In this document: positions 3,869 through 38,110 of the stretch, piece by piece
Position numbering within the stretch: position 1 is the stretch's first letter
Layout of the letters: each line of letters opens with the position of its first letter
Source of the DNA: Enterobacter phage CC31
Length of the DNA stretch: 64,000 nt
Reading direction: 5' to 3' (one strand)
Sequence record: NC_014662.1
Program-made: the position numbers and the translations under genes
The notes under the pieces: model-generated
Told to the model about the DNA's origin: nothing
Databases searched by the model: none
The model's input: only the letters and a program-made list of their open reading frames with translations

Positions 3869-4165
3869 CTATTTAAGGAGTTCGTAAAGCGAAAAGCACT
3901 TAATCATGAGTTTGCGGAAAGTAACAAAATCGAGTTCTGGCTCAAAAGCATTTTCATTACAGAATCTGAGCCATGATTTCCAAAGTTCGATGTAGCCGTT
4001 TTCATTCAGCTTAGATACATGGCCTCGCCAGACGTATTCTAAACTCGGGCCAGGTTCATTTGAGTCTGAGAATGTAATTCCCATCCACTTATCTACGAAA
4101 AATTCACCTAATCCAGTAACACGGAATGATGTGATTTCAATATTATCTAAAGTAATTCTGCTCAT
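3869..4165 (-). CDS. hypothetical protein (55.x region)
   Basis: 98 aa ORF, tightly packed with neighbours on minus strand. Confidence 0.4.
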   Translation of the reverse strand: MSRITLDNIEITSFRVTGLGEFFVDKWMGITFSDSNEPGPSLEYVWRGHVSKLNENGYIELWKSWLRFCNENAFEPELDFVTFRKLMIKCFSLYELLK

Positions 4166-4413
4166 AGGTCAAATATCCTAAAAGTATCTTCGATTAAAGT
4201 CTTGAACGTATTGAAATGCATAGGTTCAAGGTCTTCACATGTTTCTTCACAGAATTCACGATAAAGAATATCTGGAGTGTAATCACGGAAGATAGCAATA
4301 TCAGATTCCCAGTAAGCACCAGTTTCTTCATCAGAGAAATAAACGGTACCATCACGACGAATAACCCAGTCGCCGTAGTTCAATACTGTGATAGTGAATT
4401 GATTATATTTCAT
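4162..4413 (-). CDS. hypothetical protein
   Basis: 83 aa ORF, 4-nt start/stop overlap with neighbours. Confidence 0.4.
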   Translation of the reverse strand: MKYNQFTITVLNYGDWVIRRDGTVYFSDEETGAYWESDIAIFRDYTPDILYREFCEETCEDLEPMHFNTFKTLIEDTFRIFDL

Positions 4414-10384: not shown

Positions 10385-10553
10385 TATTCACCTCGTAAAG
10401 TTTCAAGAACTTCATCATCAACCCAAGACTCTAAACCACTTGGAAGAGAACGTTCAACTTCCCAAAGCAAAGCTTCACATTCACGAAGACGATTGAGCTC
10501 AGCAGAGCAAATTACTTCTTCTTTCTTTGGGTCAATCAATACAGAGTTCAGAC

Positions 10554-10835
10554 TCATTTCAAATATTCCTTCAATTCAGTGAATCCACCGATAGGCGAAC
10601 CTTTTTCGTCAAAAATCTGGGGCATTGTCAGACCAACACGAGATGGTCTATTCAGACGCACCAGAAGCTCAGAGATAACTTCTTCATTAAAGATTGGTGT
10701 ACCATCAGCTTCATTACCTGAAGTCACAGAGATGAATTCGTAATCTTTACGTTTAGCATCTAACAGACGCTTAGAATTAATGCATGGAACACATTTAAAA
10801 TGCTTGCTGTCGTAACCGAAAACCTTGAATGTCAC
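10554..10835 (-). CDS. nrdC: NrdC thioredoxin/glutaredoxin
   Basis: FKVFGYDSKHFKCVPC...GLTMPQIFDEKGSPIGGFTELKEYLK matches T4 NrdC as recalled; track ORF starts at TTG 10850, probable GTG start at 10835 after GAGGA. Confidence 0.85.
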   Translation of the reverse strand: MTFKVFGYDSKHFKCVPCINSKRLLDAKRKDYEFISVTSGNEADGTPIFNEEVISELLVRLNRPSRVGLTMPQIFDEKGSPIGGFTELKEYLK

Positions 10836-25029: not shown

Positions 25030-25288
25030 GTTTAACCTTCGTTAGAGAAACGTACTGCTTACCGGCGTGAACTCCTTCTTCAGTGCACTGGGTAGTACAA
25101 CTTGAAGCTGCCCATCTCTGCTTAATGAAAGAAAAGAAACGTTCGGATTCTTCTTTAGAAGGTTCTTTGAACTTGCTATATACTGCCATAGCACCATCAG
25201 CGTATTGTTCAAAATTTGCTTCTTCTGCCGATACGGGCGAGATTAAAGTGGCTGCAAATAAAATCGCAGCCAATGCGCGTAGAGTCAT
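25013..25288 (-). CDS. rI: RI-like lysis inhibition regulator (signal-anchored periplasmic protein)
   Basis: Trimmed to ATG 25288: MTLRALAAILFAATLISPVSAEE signal sequence then periplasmic domain with FFSFIKQRW resembling T4 RI; position two genes from tk; late promoter nearby. Confidence 0.5.
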   Translation of the reverse strand: MTLRALAAILFAATLISPVSAEEANFEQYADGAMAVYSKFKEPSKEESERFFSFIKQRWAASSCTTQCTEEGVHAGKQYVSLTKVKLENEI

Positions 25289-25295
25289 AAAAGCC

Positions 25296-25508
25296 TCAGC
25301 GTTGTCCTGTATTAAGTTTGTGCTGAAGAACAGCCTTAACTTTATCGAGGTATTTTTGCAGCTGGCGTTTACGCAAATAGTCTGGGCGTGCACCATGCTG
25401 GCGAAACTCTTCGTTTAGACTTGAGATAGCGTGGCCAATCTCGCACTTAATTTCTTCCAGTTGAGATACACCAAGATTACGAAGTTGCTTATCGTTCAAA
25501 TGCTTCAT
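25296..25508 (-). CDS. hypothetical protein
   Basis: 70 aa ORF with GAGGT RBS, downstream of late promoter. Confidence 0.4.
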   Translation of the reverse strand: MKHLNDKQLRNLGVSQLEEIKCEIGHAISSLNEEFRQHGARPDYLRKRQLQKYLDKVKAVLQHKLNTGQR

Positions 25509-29478: not shown

Positions 29479-29750
29479 TAGTAGTTTTGGTCGTCATAGA
29501 ACACTTGAAGCAGAACGTTGTTACGTAACCGCTTTGTGTCAGCTAAACGTTGTCTAAGCTTGGAGATTTTGTCCTGTACCCGGTTAAACTCTTCTGAGGT
29601 TGACGGGTCATGAATCTTCATAGCCTCATCCACAAGCTGCTCCATCTTTTCTTCCATAGCATTAATAGCTTCAGAGAAAGATTCGGAGACTTTGTTGCGG
29701 ATAGACATTAGTACTTTTCTTCTGGTTGAAACACTGAACGGCATGCCCAC
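29478..29750 (-). CDS. hypothetical protein
   Basis: 90 aa helical ORF. Confidence 0.4.
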   Translation of the reverse strand: MGMPFSVSTRRKVLMSIRNKVSESFSEAINAMEEKMEQLVDEAMKIHDPSTSEEFNRVQDKISKLRQRLADTKRLRNNVLLQVFYDDQNY

Positions 29751-29989
29751 ATAGATGCTTCTTTAAGGTGCTGAATAGCATTACGAATTTGAGTGATACG
29801 CTCATGAGCCAAATCAAACTCTTCGTCACTAATTTTATCAACATCTAAATCCATGTATACTTTTACATGTTCTTCTTCAAGAGCTTTAAAAATCAGGCCA
29901 AGACGAAGTTCAGCATCTTTAATAGCATTCACTTTACCGATTTTATCTTCAGTATGTGGTTTATAGCCTTTGATATCTTCAATTGACAT
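29708..29989 (-). CDS. hypothetical protein
   Basis: 93 aa ORF. Confidence 0.4.
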   Translation of the reverse strand: MSIEDIKGYKPHTEDKIGKVNAIKDAELRLGLIFKALEEEHVKVYMDLDVDKISDEEFDLAHERITQIRNAIQHLKEASMWACRSVFQPEEKY

Positions 29990-30360: not shown

Positions 30361-30597
30361 TTATGGGTATTGAATTTCTTCGTCAGTCTCTTTATCATAC
30401 TCACGAATTTTGATTGGTTCATTAATTCCGTAACCACTTATAAGAAGTCCAGTTTTAGCATCTTCCCACTGTTTAGTTTCTTCATTCCACACACCATTAG
30501 CGTGTGCTTCCATTAAATCTTGTTCGCCTTGGTTTGAAAACCAGTCGCAGAAAGATTTAACCAAGTGGTCGGGGACGTCGATAATAATTTGCGCCAT
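30361..30597 (-). CDS. hypothetical protein
   Basis: 78 aa acidic ORF. Confidence 0.35.
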   Translation of the reverse strand: MAQIIIDVPDHLVKSFCDWFSNQGEQDLMEAHANGVWNEETKQWEDAKTGLLISGYGINEPIKIREYDKETDEEIQYP

Positions 30598-30890
30598 GTT
30601 GGCTCCAGAGAAATGACCCTGCGGTCGTAAGTAATTAAGCTTGAAGTTTTGATGCCTTTACATGGGCCAGAGATAAACTCTACTTCAAACCATGGATGCT
30701 CATTCATCAGACCTACATCCGGTGAAGTGCAGAGAAATAATGAACCTTTAAAAGGCCCATCTAAAAATCTATACAGCTTAGGTTCAAGAACTGCACCATC
30801 TGAAAACTTAATATGCAAAATATTAATCAAAGATTCTATATCACATTTTCCGGTAGAGCGCAAGAACCTGATATATTCACTTGTAGTCAT
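30513..30890 (-). CDS. hypothetical protein
   Basis: Track ORF 30513..30932 trimmed to ATG about 30890 (MTTSEYIRFL) because a hairpin occupies 30895-30915. Confidence 0.35.
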   Translation of the reverse strand: MTTSEYIRFLRSTGKCDIESLINILHIKFSDGAVLEPKLYRFLDGPFKGSLFLCTSPDVGLMNEHPWFEVEFISGPCKGIKTSSLITYDRRVISLEPTWRKLLSTSPTTWLNLSATGFQTKANKI

Positions 30891-30928
30891 TCCAAGAGCC
30901 CGAAGGCCCTTATTAAAATTTTCTTTCA

Positions 30929-31528
30929 TCATTGCATTCCTATCACAAAGAATAATGGCATCATCTCTTCACCGCTAATGTGTGATTGATGAACACATGC
31001 ATAAAAAGGACCTTTGAAATGAGCTTCGTAGAACTTTTCCATTTCAGGGAGTTTCATTGGTTCTTCTATAATATACAAGATTCTGTTAAGCGTTCGGCCA
31101 CGGGCTTTTGAACCACCATTACTCAAGAAACTTCGCACAGTGTCCATGATAATCATGCGTTTAGCTTCATCTGGATTTGCTTGATGAATGAGTTCTTTCT
31201 CATAACAAGCTCGTATTCTTCTTGCTGTTTCTTCGGAGTTTCGTTGATGGGTGCTAATAATCCAGACAGTTCCACCGTCATGTAACCAGTCCGCTGCAAA
31301 TTCAGCAATAGCTTTAGTTTTACCTGACTGACGCCCGCCGTCGATTTTTAGCGTAGCATATTCGCGTAGAATATCTATAGGAGTGTAATGACTTTCTTTG
31401 AGGATTTCTATACAATCATCTGCGCGGATTTTAAATGCGTGCATCAGGGATAGATATGGAGCAAATAGAGATTTCGTTTTCATAAAGTTACCGTTAGTGA
31501 GGGCCTTCCATGGCTCAAGGATTTCCAT
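30929..31528 (-). CDS. hypothetical P-loop protein
   Basis: 199 aa; GGRQSGKT Walker A-like motif; no clear RBS. Confidence 0.4.
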   Translation of the reverse strand: MEILEPWKALTNGNFMKTKSLFAPYLSLMHAFKIRADDCIEILKESHYTPIDILREYATLKIDGGRQSGKTKAIAEFAADWLHDGGTVWIISTHQRNSEETARRIRACYEKELIHQANPDEAKRMIIMDTVRSFLSNGGSKARGRTLNRILYIIEEPMKLPEMEKFYEAHFKGPFYACVHQSHISGEEMMPLFFVIGMQ

Positions 31529-31670
31529 CAGCTAGCGGGAGTGCTAGGACCCTGATTGTAACTGGCTTTACCGCACTTGGGCTCGACCTTTTTACAGGTA
31601 CCAGAAGCTACTTCACTCAGAGGACACGACGTTCATGAGGAGAGGTCCAGGTTGGCTTTTTGATTGAAGA

Positions 31671-31967
31671 TTAACTAAACGGGTCGTGGAGCTTATTACC
31701 GACACGACGGAACACTTTAGCTGCAAATTTATTGGAAGGGTTATCAACCATGACTTTGCGCATGTGACCGGTCGCAACTGTTCGAGCAGCCTTATAACCA
31801 GCAATATTATCTTTCAAAGTAATTCGACCTTTTCCTTTAGGGTCATCAATGGTCACTTTGTAAGTTCCCATATCTTCGCCAGGCTTAATTTCTTCAATCC
31901 AGATATAACCACCTGGGACTCGCTTTTGTTCAGCGGCTTCAGTAATAAATTCGTTGTAGGTTTTCAT
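31671..31967 (-). CDS. internal head protein (IP) with capsid-targeting N-terminus
   Basis: 98 aa; N-terminus MKTYNEFITEA matches the T4 IP capsid-targeting sequence; flanks denV as ipII/ipIII do in T4. Confidence 0.7.
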   Translation of the reverse strand: MKTYNEFITEAAEQKRVPGGYIWIEEIKPGEDMGTYKVTIDDPKGKGRITLKDNIAGYKAARTVATGHMRKVMVDNPSNKFAAKVFRRVGNKLHDPFS

Positions 31968-32418: not shown

Positions 32419-32452
32419 GAGTATCATAACATGGACAAACGGAGATGTAAAC
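32419..32452 (-). promoter_or_regulatory. early promoter for denV
   Basis: Minus strand GTTTAC then GATACT-type -10 within GGTATGAG dyad, upstream of denV ATG 32392. Confidence 0.45.
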
Positions 32453-33963: not shown

Positions 33964-34271
33964 ACCTTTTCCTCTAAGAAGTCAGACAGTTTAAAATCTT
34001 TACGGTCCATCAGACCATAGTGAATGTTCTTCAGCGTATCGTACATGTCCCAGTACTTTTCTTTTAGCATATTACCAAATGGTGGAATGTAAAGCTTATC
34101 CCATTTGGCAGCTAACTCACCGTTGCGCAGTTCTCCTGGAACATTTTCAACGATACGTAAAACTTTAGTTGCAACCTCATAATCGGATGGCGGAATCCAT
34201 CCCCAATTATGATGTACTGAACCGTTAATTTCGCCATTCAGCGAAGTAAAAATTGTAGCTGGACAACTCAT
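33960..34271 (-). CDS. hypothetical protein
   Basis: 103 aa ORF. Confidence 0.4.
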   Translation of the reverse strand: MSCPATIFTSLNGEINGSVHHNWGWIPPSDYEVATKVLRIVENVPGELRNGELAAKWDKLYIPPFGNMLKEKYWDMYDTLKNIHYGLMDRKDFKLSDFLEEKV

Positions 34272-34630
34272 CGTGTACCTCTAATACCTTGAATAAAGTT
34301 TAAAGCATCTTCACCTGAAGGAACTTCTTTAGACTTAGATTTTCGTTTAAAGAGTTTCCACTCTTTCTTTTGGTCGAAGGTTCCACGTTGAACCTGCCCA
34401 AGATAAAATAACCACTTTCCAATCCAGTAGAATGGAGTTAAAATGCCAGCCATCCAGCCAACAAAAAGTAATTGTTCTCCATAAAGAGGACTAAAGAAGT
34501 ACAATCCCCAATATAATCCAAACCCATTAAGCATTGTGAACATAAAGCAAATAATAATAGTGCCAATAGTCCATCCGAAATTATCATATGAACCAGCATC
34601 TTTGAATCCGCGAAATAATGTTTTAATCAT
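34268..34630 (-). CDS. small 2-TM membrane protein, paralog D of tandem array
   Basis: 120 aa; two hydrophobic helices; C-terminal LNFIQGIRGTR. Confidence 0.45.
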   Translation of the reverse strand: MIKTLFRGFKDAGSYDNFGWTIGTIIICFMFTMLNGFGLYWGLYFFSPLYGEQLLFVGWMAGILTPFYWIGKWLFYLGQVQRGTFDQKKEWKLFKRKSKSKEVPSGEDALNFIQGIRGTR

Positions 34631-37001: not shown

Positions 37002-37064
37002 AGTGTTCCTCCAGTGATTCTGGGGAAACTTTTCAGTTTCCCCATATATTACCATTAACAGCTG

Positions 37065-37137
37065 CTAGTGTACCTGGACTCGAACCAGGGAATCGTAGAA
37101 TCAAAATCTACTGCCTTACCAACTTGGCTATACCCCA
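37065..37137 (-). tRNA. tRNA-Gln (anticodon UUG)
   Basis: Minus strand TGGGGTATAGCCAAGTTGGTAAGGCA-GTAGA-TTTTGAT-TCTAC-...CCTGGTTCGAGTCCAGG; anticodon loop gives TTG; coordinates approximate. Confidence 0.7.
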
Positions 37138-37143
37138 ACTGTT

Positions 37144-37220
37144 TGGAGGCGGGTGATGGACTCGAACCATCGCGTAACGGGATATGAACCCGTCATTCTA
37201 CCAACTGAAGTTAACCCGCA
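37144..37220 (-). tRNA. tRNA with CAU anticodon (Met or lysidine-type Ile)
   Basis: Anticodon arm ACGGG-TTCATAT-CCCGT, T arm GATGGTTCGAGTCCATC, CCA encoded; pos 1:72 mismatch and irregular D arm lower confidence. Confidence 0.55.
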
Positions 37221-37340
37221 CTTATCCGGATTCCTGAAGTACAACGGCTGCTTTATGTAGAACTCACCTATTGTGAGGGAACAAAATCACTGGTCCTGGC
37301 ATTAATTATGGACCACCATCTTCAGGAACTGCCTCGTATT
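37221..37340 (-). ncRNA. structured spacer in tRNA cluster, candidate small stable RNA
   Basis: About 120 nt without ORF or tRNA; long-range complement ttcctgaagt/acttcaggaa and internal hairpin GGTCC...GGACC; T4 carries two small RNAs of unknown function in its tRNA cluster. Confidence 0.3.
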
Positions 37341-37416
37341 TGGCGGACCTAACGGGATTCGAACCCGTGACTCTCACGTGACAGGCGAGTATTTTCACCG
37401 CTGAAACTATAGGTCC
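37341..37416 (-). tRNA. tRNA-Asp (anticodon GUC)
   Basis: 76 nt with CCA; acceptor GGACCTA/TAGGTCC; anticodon arm CTCGC-CTGTCAC-GTGAG; T arm ACGGGTTCGAATCCCGT. Confidence 0.7.
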
Positions 37417-37658
37417 AAATTATCTTTCGTGATTATGTGAATCCCTCAGGTTTTCCGGAAAACCGAATAGGCGACAAAAGCTCTCATATACCCGTGCACA
37501 GATATAATCTTTGTTAACTAGTGTCTGAATCAGTATAATCCGAAAGATAACTTTCGGCGCCGTATTTAATTTGAGATATGTAGTTATCGTTGAGGGAACT
37601 CATATTCAGGGATTAACATGCCGACGACTTTGTCAGAACGTCTTCCAACTTCTATATT
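37417..37658 (-). ncRNA. structured spacer in tRNA cluster, candidate small stable RNA(s)
   Basis: About 240 nt without ORF or canonical T-loop; hairpins GGTTTTCC/GGAAAACC and CCGAAAG-N4-CTTTCGG. Confidence 0.3.
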
Positions 37659-37743
37659 TGGCGGGTCGTGCAGGTATCGAACCTGCCTAGTCATTTCTGA
37701 CACGGATTAACAGTCCGCCGCTTACCCTCTCAGCCAACGACCC
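37659..37743 (-). tRNA. tRNA-Asn-like (anticodon GUU) with unusually long variable arm
   Basis: 85 nt with CCA; perfect acceptor GGGTCGT/ACGACCC; anticodon arm GCGGA-CTGTTAA-TCCGT identical to the recalled E. coli tRNA-Asn arm; 15-nt variable region GTCAGAAATGACTAG. Confidence 0.6.
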
Positions 37744-37748
37744 AAATT

Positions 37749-37823
37749 TGGTTCTCCGTAAGAGAATTGAACTCTTCTTTCCGACGTGAAAGGCCGGCGT
37801 CCTAACCGATAGACGAACGGAGA
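37749..37823 (-). tRNA. tRNA-Glu (anticodon UUC)
   Basis: Acceptor TCTCCGT/ACGGAGA; TCGTCTA...GGAC D arm; anticodon arm CCGGC-CTTTCAC-GTCGG; T arm AAGAGTTCAATTCTCTT; CCA encoded. Confidence 0.75.
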
Positions 37824-37824
37824 T

Positions 37825-37902
37825 TGGTAGGACGTGAGGGAGTTGAACCCATCGACATTCCGATTAAAAGTCGGATGCTCTAACCAACTGAGCTAACGTC
37901 CT
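37825..37902 (-). tRNA. tRNA-Lys (anticodon UUU)
   Basis: Acceptor AGGACGT/ACGTCCT; D arm TAGCTCAGTTGGTTAGAGC; anticodon arm TCCGA-CTTTTAA-TCGGA; T stem pairs imperfectly in my reading. Confidence 0.6.
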
Positions 37903-37940
37903 GTAGATATTTATAATAACAAAAATATCTTTAAGCAAAT

Positions 37941-38016
37941 TGGTGGGAATAACTGGACTCGAACCAGTGACCTAACGATTATCGGTCGTTTGCTCTACCA
38001 ACTGAGCTATATTCCC
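37941..38016 (-). tRNA. tRNA-Ile (anticodon GAU)
   Basis: 76 nt: GGGAATATAGCTCAGTTGGTAGAGCA-AACGA-CCGATAA-TCGTT-AGGTC-ACTGGTTCGAGTCCAGT-TATTCCC-A-CCA. Confidence 0.7.
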
Positions 38017-38022
38017 TGAATT

Positions 38023-38110
38023 TGGTGGGGAGTGATGGAGTCGAACCACCCGAGTCGCAATGACAACAGATTTACAGTCTGCACCGCTACCTCTACGGAA
38101 TTAACTCCCC
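38023..38110 (-). tRNA. tRNA-Tyr (anticodon GUA), type II
   Basis: Acceptor GGGGAGT/ACTCCCC; anticodon arm GCAGA-CTGTAAA-TCTGT; long variable arm with GTC/GAC stem; T arm GGTGGTTCGACTCCATC; CCA encoded. Confidence 0.7.

Follow-up and report, generated by a model that had tools for sequence, protein, structure and literature searches.

In the present study, we analyzed a 64,000-nt stretch of the genome of Enterobacter phage CC31 (NC_014662.1), referred to below as the window; all coordinates are positions in this stretch. It comes from a Karamvirus-type T4-like phage, most similar (90-93% identity) to the records of Enterobacter phages belonging to the PG7 group, and all genes of the region considered here are on the minus strand. 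In this region, an internal-protein (IP)-like gene is separated by a gap of 142 nt (31529-31670) from an open reading frame (ORF) of 199 amino acids (30929..31528, minus strand), which contains the sequence GGRQSGKT, as had been noted in the original prediction. That prediction regarded the ORF, together with the adjacent GC-rich gap, as a remnant of an inserted element or as a structured RNA locus. Comparative sequence analysis strongly supports the structured RNA: the gap encodes a member of a conserved RNA family on the gene strand, with a pseudoknot and a three-way junction, and this RNA is part of the predicted denV/IP-vs.8 polycistronic message. Whereas the ORF belongs to an already known family (vs.8), the RNA matches no described family that we found, and it is here that the novelty lies.

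A covariance model (CM) of the RNA, R1, detected the element in the window with 135.8 bits (E 2e-37) as the sole strong match in the 64 kb; weak matches at 25242-25343 (14 bits) and 34245-34365 (10 bits) were regarded as noise. The element was also matched by nhmmer (E 5e-43), and it starts 6 nt after the stop codon of the second IP-like gene. The GC-richness claimed for the gap was borne out by a windowed analysis: its GC content is 0.507, whereas the window averages 0.392 (sd 0.039), which gives a z of 2.9, a level reached by just 0.5% of the 142-nt windows along the 64 kb. The gap falls in the same range as the tRNA genes, and the GC content of the RNA element is 0.512 (z 3.3). A blastn search with the gap alone retrieved 856 phage records, among which almost none carries an annotation at the element. 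Across Karamvirus, Jiaodavirus, Dhakavirus, Gelderlandvirus, Mosigvirus and others, a block of about 92 nt retains 84-93% identity, and the window and T4 have 32 nt of the gap in common, whereas the Vs.8 proteins of the same loci are merely 41-49% identical. The invariant 32-nt core of the RNA is ACCUGUAAnAAGGUCnAGCCnnAGnGCGGUAA, and a second conserved block, AUGGA-N5-6-AUGUGCCAnGGAAnGGCCCC, was seen in an alignment of seven phages and is found in T4 too.

The gap had been described as non-coding. This holds in that no conserved ORF is present, but the true non-coding interval is 31484-31670 (187 nt), the start of the ORF having been misplaced. On neither strand does any reading frame stay open from clade to clade, and the copy in the window has stops in all six frames. 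A small peptide or upstream ORF was rejected, as the frames vary by lineage, the AUGGA frame of phage KPV15 is stopped at codon 3, and diverged copies of the RNA ('B' copies) lack the AUG, reading ACG or GCG instead. An antisense ORF at 31510-31638, annotated as KAALPHA_132 in phage KaAlpha, is not conserved. Likely mis-annotations over the RNA were found at L003:3715-3843 (KAALPHA_132), L135:1946-2264 (PsgM04F CDS0285/0286) and L134:2590-2706 (Ivi ECPH5_11), where L numbers are our designations of loci; these small 'hypothetical protein' ORFs partly lie on the strand opposite to the RNA.

On the gene strand, the RNA is read in the 5' to 3' order P1(5')-PK(5')-optional P1a-P1(3')-P2(5')-Pc-Pd-GGUAA-P2(3')-PK(3') (Table 1). 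P1 is crossed by PK, forming an H-type pseudoknot, the third loop of which carries the three-way junction P2/Pc/Pd. The junction is built of the near-invariant core, and the helices differ in almost every lineage with the pairing kept. Thus, P1 appears as AAAGG/CCUUU in IME08, GGGAA/UUCCC in T4, GGGAG/CUCCC in L090, GGGG/CCCC in rV5-like phages, GAGGG/CCCUC in Ivi, GAAUG/CAUUC in PsgM04F and GUAG/CUAC in L100. PK is found elsewhere as CCG/CGG, ACAC/GUGU, CGC/GCG, CUCG/CGAG, ACCA/UGGU, CCAGC/GCUGG, CUCCGG/CCGGAG, CCGG/CCGG and CGGG/UCCG, and P2 as CCCU/AGGG, UCCU/GGGG, CCA/UGG, CGCG/UGCG, CGCG/CGCG and AC(C/U)/(G/A)GU. Pc is 100% paired in 40 distinct sequences, and its closing A-U pair becomes G-C in Melville and L051B. 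The segment that follows Pc, CGAGCCCAAGUGCGGUAA (31568..31585), is identical or has just 3-4 variable positions across all phage groups. The P1a hairpin is invariable within the main type, has lost one base per side in L053 and L062 (CU-A/U-AG), and is missing in Ivi and L100; at its position, T4 has a different hairpin, CCUCAU/AUGAGG, with the compensatory version CCUUAU/AUAAGG in L124. The hairpin inserted in Karamvirus is fully compensated as CCACC/GGUGG and CCAUC/GAUGG (L063, L009, L051). As read from the sequence, an alternative local pairing of AUCAG (31552-31556) with CUGAU (31527-31531) would be possible in the Karamvirus copies.

Copies outside the T4-like phages consist of this universal module without the 3' domain, which is conserved in all T4-like copies including that of T4. 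The 3' domain contains A(U/A/G)GGA (31524-31528), UUG/AUG (31516-31518) and the hairpin GCC-AUGGAA-GGC (31503-31514), with two GGA motifs 17-19 nt apart; the ACG or GCG of the 'B' copies stands at the position of its AUG. The sequence UUACA can pair with the Pc loop or with AUGU, and these pairings are mutually exclusive. Pairing of the Pc loop with UUACA reads A-U, G.U and G-C in the window, fGh-Ecl01 and PG7. Although attractive, a tertiary pairing between UGUAA of the Pc loop and UUACA was set aside, being without support in the swap test described below (z -0.27) and missing outside the T4-like phages.

The helices were evaluated with about 45 distinct copies of the RNA, collected by pattern scans of viral, metagenome and genome collections and by BLAST; pattern matches in L128 and L132 were dismissed as chance matches inside GC-rich coding DNA. 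Because some lineages stay shifted by one or two columns in MAFFT and even in CM alignments, we used an alignment-free partner-swap test, in which strands are cut by conserved anchors, duplex energies are computed with own and foreign strands, and partners are permuted. With all distinct strand combinations, z was -7.65 for PK (0/20 000 permutations), -5.63 for P1 (0/20 000) and -4.22 for P2 (3/20 000). In a strict version, with one representative for each of 14 clades and deliberately long strands, p was approximately 0.003 for PK, 0.0015 for P1 and 4e-5 for P2. The CM was built from P1, P2, Pc and the 3' hairpin only, so that PK is outside the model, and it gave 39-54 bits for the copies outside the T4-like phages. 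In the CM alignment, 85.3% of the cells are paired, compared with 74.0% after shuffling (0/500 reach the observed value), and the covariation is 0.275, compared with 0.107 after shuffling (0/500) and at most 0.148 when the partners are slid by 1-3 columns. Changes on both sides were observed in five of the five pairs of P1 and in four of the five pairs of PK, which had not been fitted. G.U pairs are present in P2 and PK on the gene strand, and the element is co-oriented with the flanking genes or tRNAs in every lineage; thus, the gene (minus) strand is most probably the functional one. Default RNAalifold on MAFFT alignments was discarded, since register shifts in these alignments let it recover just Pc and a few pairs.

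Table 1. Features of the CC31 window around the structured RNA and vs.8
Feature	Position	Strand	Remarks
Whole structured RNA (universal module plus T4-like 3' domain)	31493..31664	minus	about 170 nt; CM, nhmmer, GC
P1, 5' strand AAGC	31655..31658	minus	pairs with 31605-31608
PK, 5' strand CCUGG	31647..31651	minus	pairs with 31551-31555, crossing P1
P1a hairpin CUCA...UGAG, inner GAAC/GUCC stem	31616..31639	minus	lineage-specific, optional
P1, 3' strand GCUU	31605..31608	minus	pairs with 31655-31658
P2, 5' strand CUGGU	31600..31604	minus	pairs with 31562-31566; closes three-way junction
Pc hairpin ACCU GUAAAA AGGU	31586..31599	minus	first half of invariant core; pair counts
Invariant segment with tentative Pd (GC/GC around CCAAGU) and GGUAA junction	31568..31585	minus
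P2, 3' strand GCCAG	31562..31566	minus	pairs with 31600-31604
PK, 3' strand UCAGG	31551..31555	minus	pairs with 31647-31651
Karamvirus-specific inserted hairpin CUAGC ACUCCC GCUAG	31532..31547	minus
T4-like-specific 3' domain	31498..31528	minus	conserved in all T4-like copies including T4
vs.8 homolog, 184 aa, predicted single RecA-like P-loop ATPase domain	30929..31483	minus	phrog_1488; PG7 annotation; AlphaFold2; Foldseek
vs.7 homolog	30932-30513	minus	phrog_2049, E 3.8e-42; PG7 annotation; start overlaps vs.8 stop (ATGA)
vs.6, GrcA-like glycyl-radical cofactor	30351-29989	minus	Pfam Gly_radical, E 1.6e-17
vs.4 homolog	29708-29989	minus	same operon as GrcA-like vs.6
Second IP-like gene (internal-protein-like)	31967-31671	minus	phrog_3966; KaAlpha annotation 'putative internal head protein'
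denV	32392-31976	minus
Early-type promoter-like site TTTACA-17-TATGAT with upstream TG	32423-32451	minus	consensus scan only
First IP-like gene	32775-32452	minus
Lysozyme gene e	33223-32729	minus
nudE	33736-33257	minus
tRNA cluster, eight genes (Gln, Met, Asp, Asn, Glu, Lys, Ile and one more)	37064-38110	minus	also a GC island (37051-38099)

The ORF on the 3' side of the RNA is the homolog of T4 vs.8. Its residues 19-199 match positions 2-177 of the 177 positions of the phrog_1488 profile (E 1.8e-69), it is annotated as vs.8 in PG7 and IME08, and it aligns with T4 ORF 64.0/vs.8 with 45% identity; the synteny is also that of T4 vs.8, with denV and ip genes upstream and vs.7 and vs.6 downstream. 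It belongs to the same family as T4 vs.8 (PHROG 1488), and nothing essential is different in the window copy. The N-termini of all homologs align as MK(S/Y)L..., which corresponds to the ATG at 31483, and thus the true start is probably this codon, giving a protein of 184 amino acids. The ATG at 31528, with which the 199-aa ORF begins, falls in the conserved AUGGA of the RNA element, 15 codons too far upstream. The lack of an obvious ribosome-binding site (RBS) was confirmed: there is no good Shine-Dalgarno (SD) sequence upstream of either ATG 31528 or the internal ATG 31483, whereas in most lineages vs.8 has a purine-rich one. Two other vs.8 products, P0009 and P0010 (246-255 aa), are probably mis-annotated, being N-terminally over-extended across the whole RNA.

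The view of the ORF as a remnant of an inserted element could not be maintained. Full-length homologs of Vs.8 were found by tblastn in about 1 010 phage records, all from enterobacterial T4-like phages, and the motifs DGGRQxGK[TS] (Walker A), hhhh[ED]EP (Walker B-like) and C-terminal PLFFVxGxQ are invariant in the homolog alignments. Thus, the GC content of the locus does deviate, as had been proposed, yet the ORF proves to be a regular phage gene under conservation. The terminase-like character of its Walker A motif was partly upheld. The AlphaFold2 model consists of a single RecA-like alpha/beta domain (pLDDT 79.9, pTM 0.81) of the ASCE type, and its Foldseek neighbours include the helicase domain of reverse gyrase, RecD, XPB, T4 UvsW and the ATPase domain of the large terminase (TerL) of P74-26, with E from 3e-4 to 1e-3, query TM-scores (TMq) of 0.40-0.48 and 9-19% identity (E 5e-4 and 18-19% for P74-26 TerL). 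The RQxGKT Walker A is common to TerL and Vs.8. However, Vs.8 is not a terminase: as had been pointed out, it is far too short, being a single domain of 184 aa compared with about 400-700 aa, and it has no RNase H-like nuclease domain. Identification as a helicase of superfamily 1 or 2 (SF1/SF2) was also rejected, since these require two tandem RecA-like domains and Vs.8, which aligns with helicase domain 1 (TMq 0.44-0.48), has one; it differs from TerL and from helicase domain 1 in having no nuclease domain, second RecA domain or arginine-finger partner. Searches of Vs.8 gave no PDB relative by sequence, no convincing PADLOC match and no recognisable RNA-binding domain; the Pfam family Terminase_6N scored only 18.4 bits, below its cut-off of 22, and AAA_14 and all other Pfam matches were also below the cut-off. 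We therefore take the ORF to be a normal accessory gene that is conserved and, by its structural model, encodes a minimal ASCE ATPase, neither a terminase nor a remnant.

In the T4-like phages, the RNA is closely linked to this gene. At 35 of the 37 T4-like loci, vs.8 comes next after the RNA, with its start 9-15 nt past the end of the model, and the numbers of records are similar for the RNA (about 900) and vs.8 (about 1 010). The RNA starts between -49 and +5 nt relative to the upstream stop codon, mostly within 10 nt, and the upstream gene varies between phages (denV, IP-like or other). The order is e-IPx-denV-IPy-RNA-vs.8 in the window, e-IPy-denV-RNA-vs.8 in PG7 and e-IPy-RNA-vs.8, with no denV, in KaAlpha, and comparison of the sequences indicates that the 5' edge of the RNA is a recombination boundary. 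In KPV15 (NC_055715), an IP gene has been inserted 3' of the full RNA element, and the 3' hairpin alone recurs 5' of vs.8, with AGGA 17 nt upstream. This duplication of the hairpin implies that the 3' domain is a separable module tied to the downstream start. The vs.8 gene of KPV15 (L006:1953-2620; start about L006:2064; DGGRQTGKT) is unannotated in RefSeq. Some Karamvirus relatives (L063, L051, L129, L062) have two copies, of which the first is truncated and the second is diverged and has the 3' domain. One of the two T4-like loci without the linkage is L107:13445-13595, where the ORF after the RNA encodes 80 aa with no similarity to vs.8.

As for the neighbouring genes, the promoter-like site between the first IP-like gene and denV could be the driver of a denV-IP-RNA-vs.8 transcript. 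In the same operon as vs.6 lies vs.4, the product of which we take to be the anti-CBASS sponge Acb2. In the tRNA cluster, the eighth tRNA (38026-38110) was called by Rfam alone, and a gap of 240 nt without tRNA (37417-37658) could hold RNAs of the rnaC/rnaD type.

The universal module also occurs in phages unrelated to T4, usually close to tRNA genes. In rV5-like Vequintavirus (119 full-length records), it lies about 450-570 nt upstream of a tRNA cluster, and a strong sigma-70-type promoter-like site comes next after it. In phages of about 150 kb (phiWec188/190, DE16, SF1-1 and PsgM04F), it lies within the tRNA cluster and has the same orientation as the tRNAs. In N4-like Klebsiella phages Pylas and KpCHEMY26 and in contigs of about 47 kb, it is located 250-730 nt from tRNAs. 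Same-strand tRNAs at this distance were found in L136, L137, L139, L142, L145, L141 and L144. In Ivi and fEg-Eco19, two phages of 45 kb, and in contig L100, it lies downstream of the lysis genes and between intrinsic terminators; Ivi has two such terminators but no convincing promoter. In both rV5-like phages and Ivi, a promoter-like site separates the RNA from the next gene. At least five phage groups with the universal module have no detectable vs.8 homolog, and the genes downstream of the RNA are unrelated across lineages (vs.8, an IP gene, tRNAs, small ORFs). No copy of the RNA was found in 5 426 complete E. coli genomes, either in the chromosome or in prophages.

At the Pylas-type loci, the RNA is flanked by long hairpins with conserved arms of 12 + 5 bp and 10 + 5 bp (L137:10413-10437, 10516-10534, 10632-10658 and 10712-10730; also L139, L142, L136, L145 and L135), the arms being CACAACAG(A/G)TAA..GCATTG and CAGTGC..TT.TCGTTGTGG. 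Judging from their sequences, these hairpins, which lie between successive non-coding units beside the tRNA clusters, may be RNase III-type processing stems. T-arm-like fragments (e.g. GCGGTTCGATTCCGC) that are not called as tRNAs were observed in the loops and next units of these loci. Furthermore, Pylas (L137:10900-11130) and KpCHEMY26 (L143:3004-3091) have an unannotated gene resembling a circularly permuted tmRNA, with TTAGGTTCAACTCCTAAACCA (T-arm plus ACCA) followed by a tag frame, GCAAACGATGATGTTGTTCTGATGGCTGCTTAA, which reads ANDDVVLMAA*. It matched the Rfam model tmRNA_permuted with 33.7 bits (gathering score 47; E 1.8e-4) and was not called by ARAGORN. The possibility that the RNA is part of a phage tmRNA was rejected, as the tmRNA-like gene is confined to Pylas and KpCHEMY26 and is separated from the RNA by a long hairpin and about 250 nt. 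In the rV5-like L119:4365-5207 and L144:4587-4832, a group I intron-like match to Rfam was observed (47 bits, gathering score 50), which in L119 starts at the end of a terminase-like ATPase ORF (3949-4377).

The host labels of some records call for caution. The 'Campylobacter phage' records A140, D1 and C12 (MG065674, MG065646 and MG065635) are 93-95% identical to E. coli rV5-like phages over the RNA, and 'Pseudomonas phage PsgM04F' (OR584014) is 84% identical to the phiWec188-like group over the RNA. These labels seem doubtful, and the reach of the RNA beyond Enterobacteriaceae is therefore uncertain.

Searches for a known identity of the RNA were negative. No tRNA or tmRNA was detected at 31484-31670 by ARAGORN or Rfam, and the families of Rfam 15, all riboswitch and small-ribozyme classes included, gave 0 matches at E <= 10 for window positions 31400-31800. 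Rfam also gave no match at the RNA in L119, L125, L100, L137 or eight further loci. No promoter or terminator delimiting a short transcript, as in an independent small RNA gene, was seen in the window, but the RNA is bounded by two terminators in Ivi and by long hairpins at the Pylas-type loci. Orphan stable RNAs are known from phage tRNA regions, such as T4 rnaC/rnaD, ROOL and GOLLD, and these have in common with the present RNA that they are structured non-tRNA species co-located and co-oriented with phage tRNA genes. However, no similarity was detected, the CM finding only one copy in the window, which includes the tRNA region, and ROOL and GOLLD, both of them Rfam families, exceed the present RNA 5-8 times in size. 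The PeSL mobile cassettes of T4-type phages, as reported by Arbiol et al. in 2010, are said to consist of an early promoter consensus and a simple stem-loop. Such a cassette was rejected for our locus: 31484-31670 has no promoter-like site on the minus strand, and the RNA has a pseudoknot and a three-way junction, not a single stem-loop. A literature search found no paper with the core sequence and nothing specific on vs.8, T4 small RNAs or phage RNA motifs; a paper on RegB/S1 target sites (PMC1702504) concerns the Shine-Dalgarno sequence of denV, not this RNA. Fremin, Bhatt and Kyrpides (2023; PMC10690425) surveyed intergenic regions of IMG/VR by covariation and proposed 8 495 unnamed structured-RNA candidates, 'DNAVirus_N', of which their text singles out only the gp20 and gp32 leaders and tRNA-like and terminator candidates. 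The present RNA may well be among the 8 495, and its architecture is not described in the text.

Our interpretation of these results, which we would give an even chance, is that the RNA is a discrete domain binding one conserved partner, is excised in the manner of tRNAs, and in T4-like phages serves as a vs.8 leader whose 3' domain governs translation. The universal module would be such a partner-binding domain because its core is invariant across unrelated phages while the genes around it differ and its helices diverge through compensatory changes. The partner might be a host or phage macromolecule of the translation or tRNA sphere, or a small ligand. In the phages unrelated to T4, the RNA would be expressed and excised like the surrounding tRNAs, with flanking processing-type hairpins or terminators. 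In the T4-like phages, the module would have become a permanent part of the vs.8 leader, and translation of vs.8 would most likely be set by the 3' domain with its two GGA motifs, its AUG/UUG and its hairpin, located 9-15 nt ahead of the start of vs.8. Such a role of the 3' domain would explain the missing RBS of vs.8 in the window.

Several observations weigh against this interpretation. The tight linkage between the RNA and vs.8 in T4-like phages fits a purely cis-regulatory role equally well, and the promoter-like site after the RNA in rV5-like phages and Ivi argues against cis regulation there, without being proof of a role in trans. As for the structure, the helices are short (3-6 bp), the independent lineages are modest in number (about 14 clades), and P1 is broken in one T4-type sequence, L079. 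Pd is supported solely by three diverged 'B' copies (GCC-CGC-GGC, GUC-CGC-GAC and GAGAC-CGC-GUCUC), and neither Pd nor the pairing of the Pc loop with UUACA received statistical support in the swap test. The minimum free energy (MFE) of the window copy is -39.9 kcal/mol, compared with -18.7 kcal/mol for the nested comparative model, so that folding prefers other structures. Furthermore, the z-score of the single-sequence MFE relative to shuffles was not significant on either strand, although this is uninformative for a pseudoknot.

One alternative is a riboswitch-like cis-regulator, in which a small-molecule ligand of the aptamer would stabilise PK and free or sequester the vs.8 start region (AUG/UUG, GGA), or in other phages control read-through into tRNA genes. 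An invariant core amid covarying helices and a pseudoknot is the classic signature of an aptamer, and the constant spacing to vs.8 at 35 of the 37 loci, the tandem copies sharing one 3' domain (L063, L051, L129) as in tandem riboswitches, the mutually exclusive pairings (the 3' strand of PK or local AUCAG/CUGAU; UUACA with the Pc loop or AUGU) and the missing RBS of vs.8 in the window are all in accord with it. Riboswitches that are H-type pseudoknots with an embedded hairpin, namely preQ1-II and SAM-II/V, likewise have an extra helix in the third loop, a position before a start codon (as the RNA has in T4-like phages) and tandem arrangements. However, there is no sequence or CM similarity to them, the present RNA embeds a conserved three-way junction, and no Rfam riboswitch class was matched. 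Furthermore, the downstream genes are incoherent, vs.8 being consistent only within the T4-like phages, so that the gene context suggests no ligand; promoter-like sites or terminators lie between the RNA and the next gene in rV5-like phages and Ivi; and the 'B' copies have ACG or GCG at the AUG position. We therefore regard a riboswitch as possible and rather unlikely. A self-cleaving ribozyme or RNA-processing signal, cutting the message before vs.8 and within the tRNA-cluster transcripts, seems unlikely. Context-independent intergenic sites in operons and tRNA clusters are typical of small ribozymes, and the invariant core and pseudoknot of ribozyme-like complexity and the tandem copies would suit one. 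The order P1(5')-PK(5')-hairpin-P1(3')-hairpin-PK(3') matches the nested double pseudoknot of HDV-like ribozymes (P1-P2-P3-P1.1-P4, in which P3/L3 is indispensable and J4/2 holds the catalytic C), which include the phage 'theta' ribozymes located next to tRNAs, so that strand order, occurrence in phages and proximity to tRNAs are common to both. In the present RNA, however, the hairpin equivalent to P3/L3 is optional, being missing in the minimal members Ivi and L100, the invariant nucleotides sit in the three-way junction equivalent to P4, which is dispensable in HDV ribozymes, and neither P1.1 nor the catalytic C of HDV was identifiable. The RNA also lies hundreds of nucleotides from tRNA 3' ends, not abutting them, the long hairpins of Pylas-type loci already offer candidate processing sites, and no Rfam ribozyme model (hammerhead, twister, twister-sister, pistol, hatchet, HDV-like or glmS) was matched even at permissive E-values.

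The close association of the RNA with vs.8 at the T4-like loci, with matching record counts, might also mean that the RNA is an autoregulatory operator or ribonucleoprotein partner of Vs.8, the ATPase binding its own leader. The fold of Vs.8 resembles those of nucleic-acid-dependent ATPases (helicase domain 1, TerL), and T4 has translational operators, such as the gene 32 pseudoknot and those of gene 43 and regA, to which gp32, gp43 and RegA bind; these are, like our RNA, structured RNAs just upstream of the start of a T4 early gene, potentially bound by protein. But such operators are limited to their own gene in T4-type phages, whereas the module is common to unrelated phages, where it occurs in tRNA clusters, and to at least five phage groups lacking a detectable vs.8 homolog. 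As Vs.8 also has no recognisable RNA-binding domain, we consider this explanation very improbable. The least credible possibility, to which we give hardly any weight, is an element acting at the DNA level without RNA function, such as a recombination hotspot or cassette boundary for the shuffling of IP genes and denV, or a promoter or origin. The region is indeed hyperplastic, with denV and IP genes present, absent or reordered just upstream of the RNA, and the 3' hairpin is duplicated at the insertion junction of KPV15. Nevertheless, a recombination site would not be expected to show compensation, G.U pairs among it, in three helices across lineages around an invariant core, no promoter consensus is present inside the element, and the same module occurs in tRNA clusters of unrelated phages without IP genes.

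Returning to the interpretation as a partner-binding RNA domain, T4, which is among the best-studied genomes, has an unannotated RNA of 130-170 nt between denV and vs.8, and so have about a thousand of its relatives. The conservation of the RNA core exceeds that of any neighbouring protein, and the RNA accounts for recurrent mis-annotations, namely spurious ORFs and over-extended vs.8 genes. The RNA offers a concrete target for experiments, its covariance model is usable for the annotation of phage genomes, and Vs.8, an orphan ATPase, gains a conserved RNA neighbour. With slightly better than even confidence, we propose that the RNA represents a new class of functional phage RNA, present in at least six unrelated groups of virulent enterobacterial phages and inside tRNA/tmRNA islands, which would act on a conserved component of host translation or the tRNA system or sense a cellular signal, and which in T4-type phages would be coupled to the RecA-like ATPase Vs.8 in the operon of anti-CBASS vs.4 and regB. 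The occurrence of the module in rV5-like, N4-like, about 150-kb and about 45-kb phages, typically among tRNA genes, points to a general phage strategy, in which a conserved host function might be controlled or hijacked or the state of the cell sensed.

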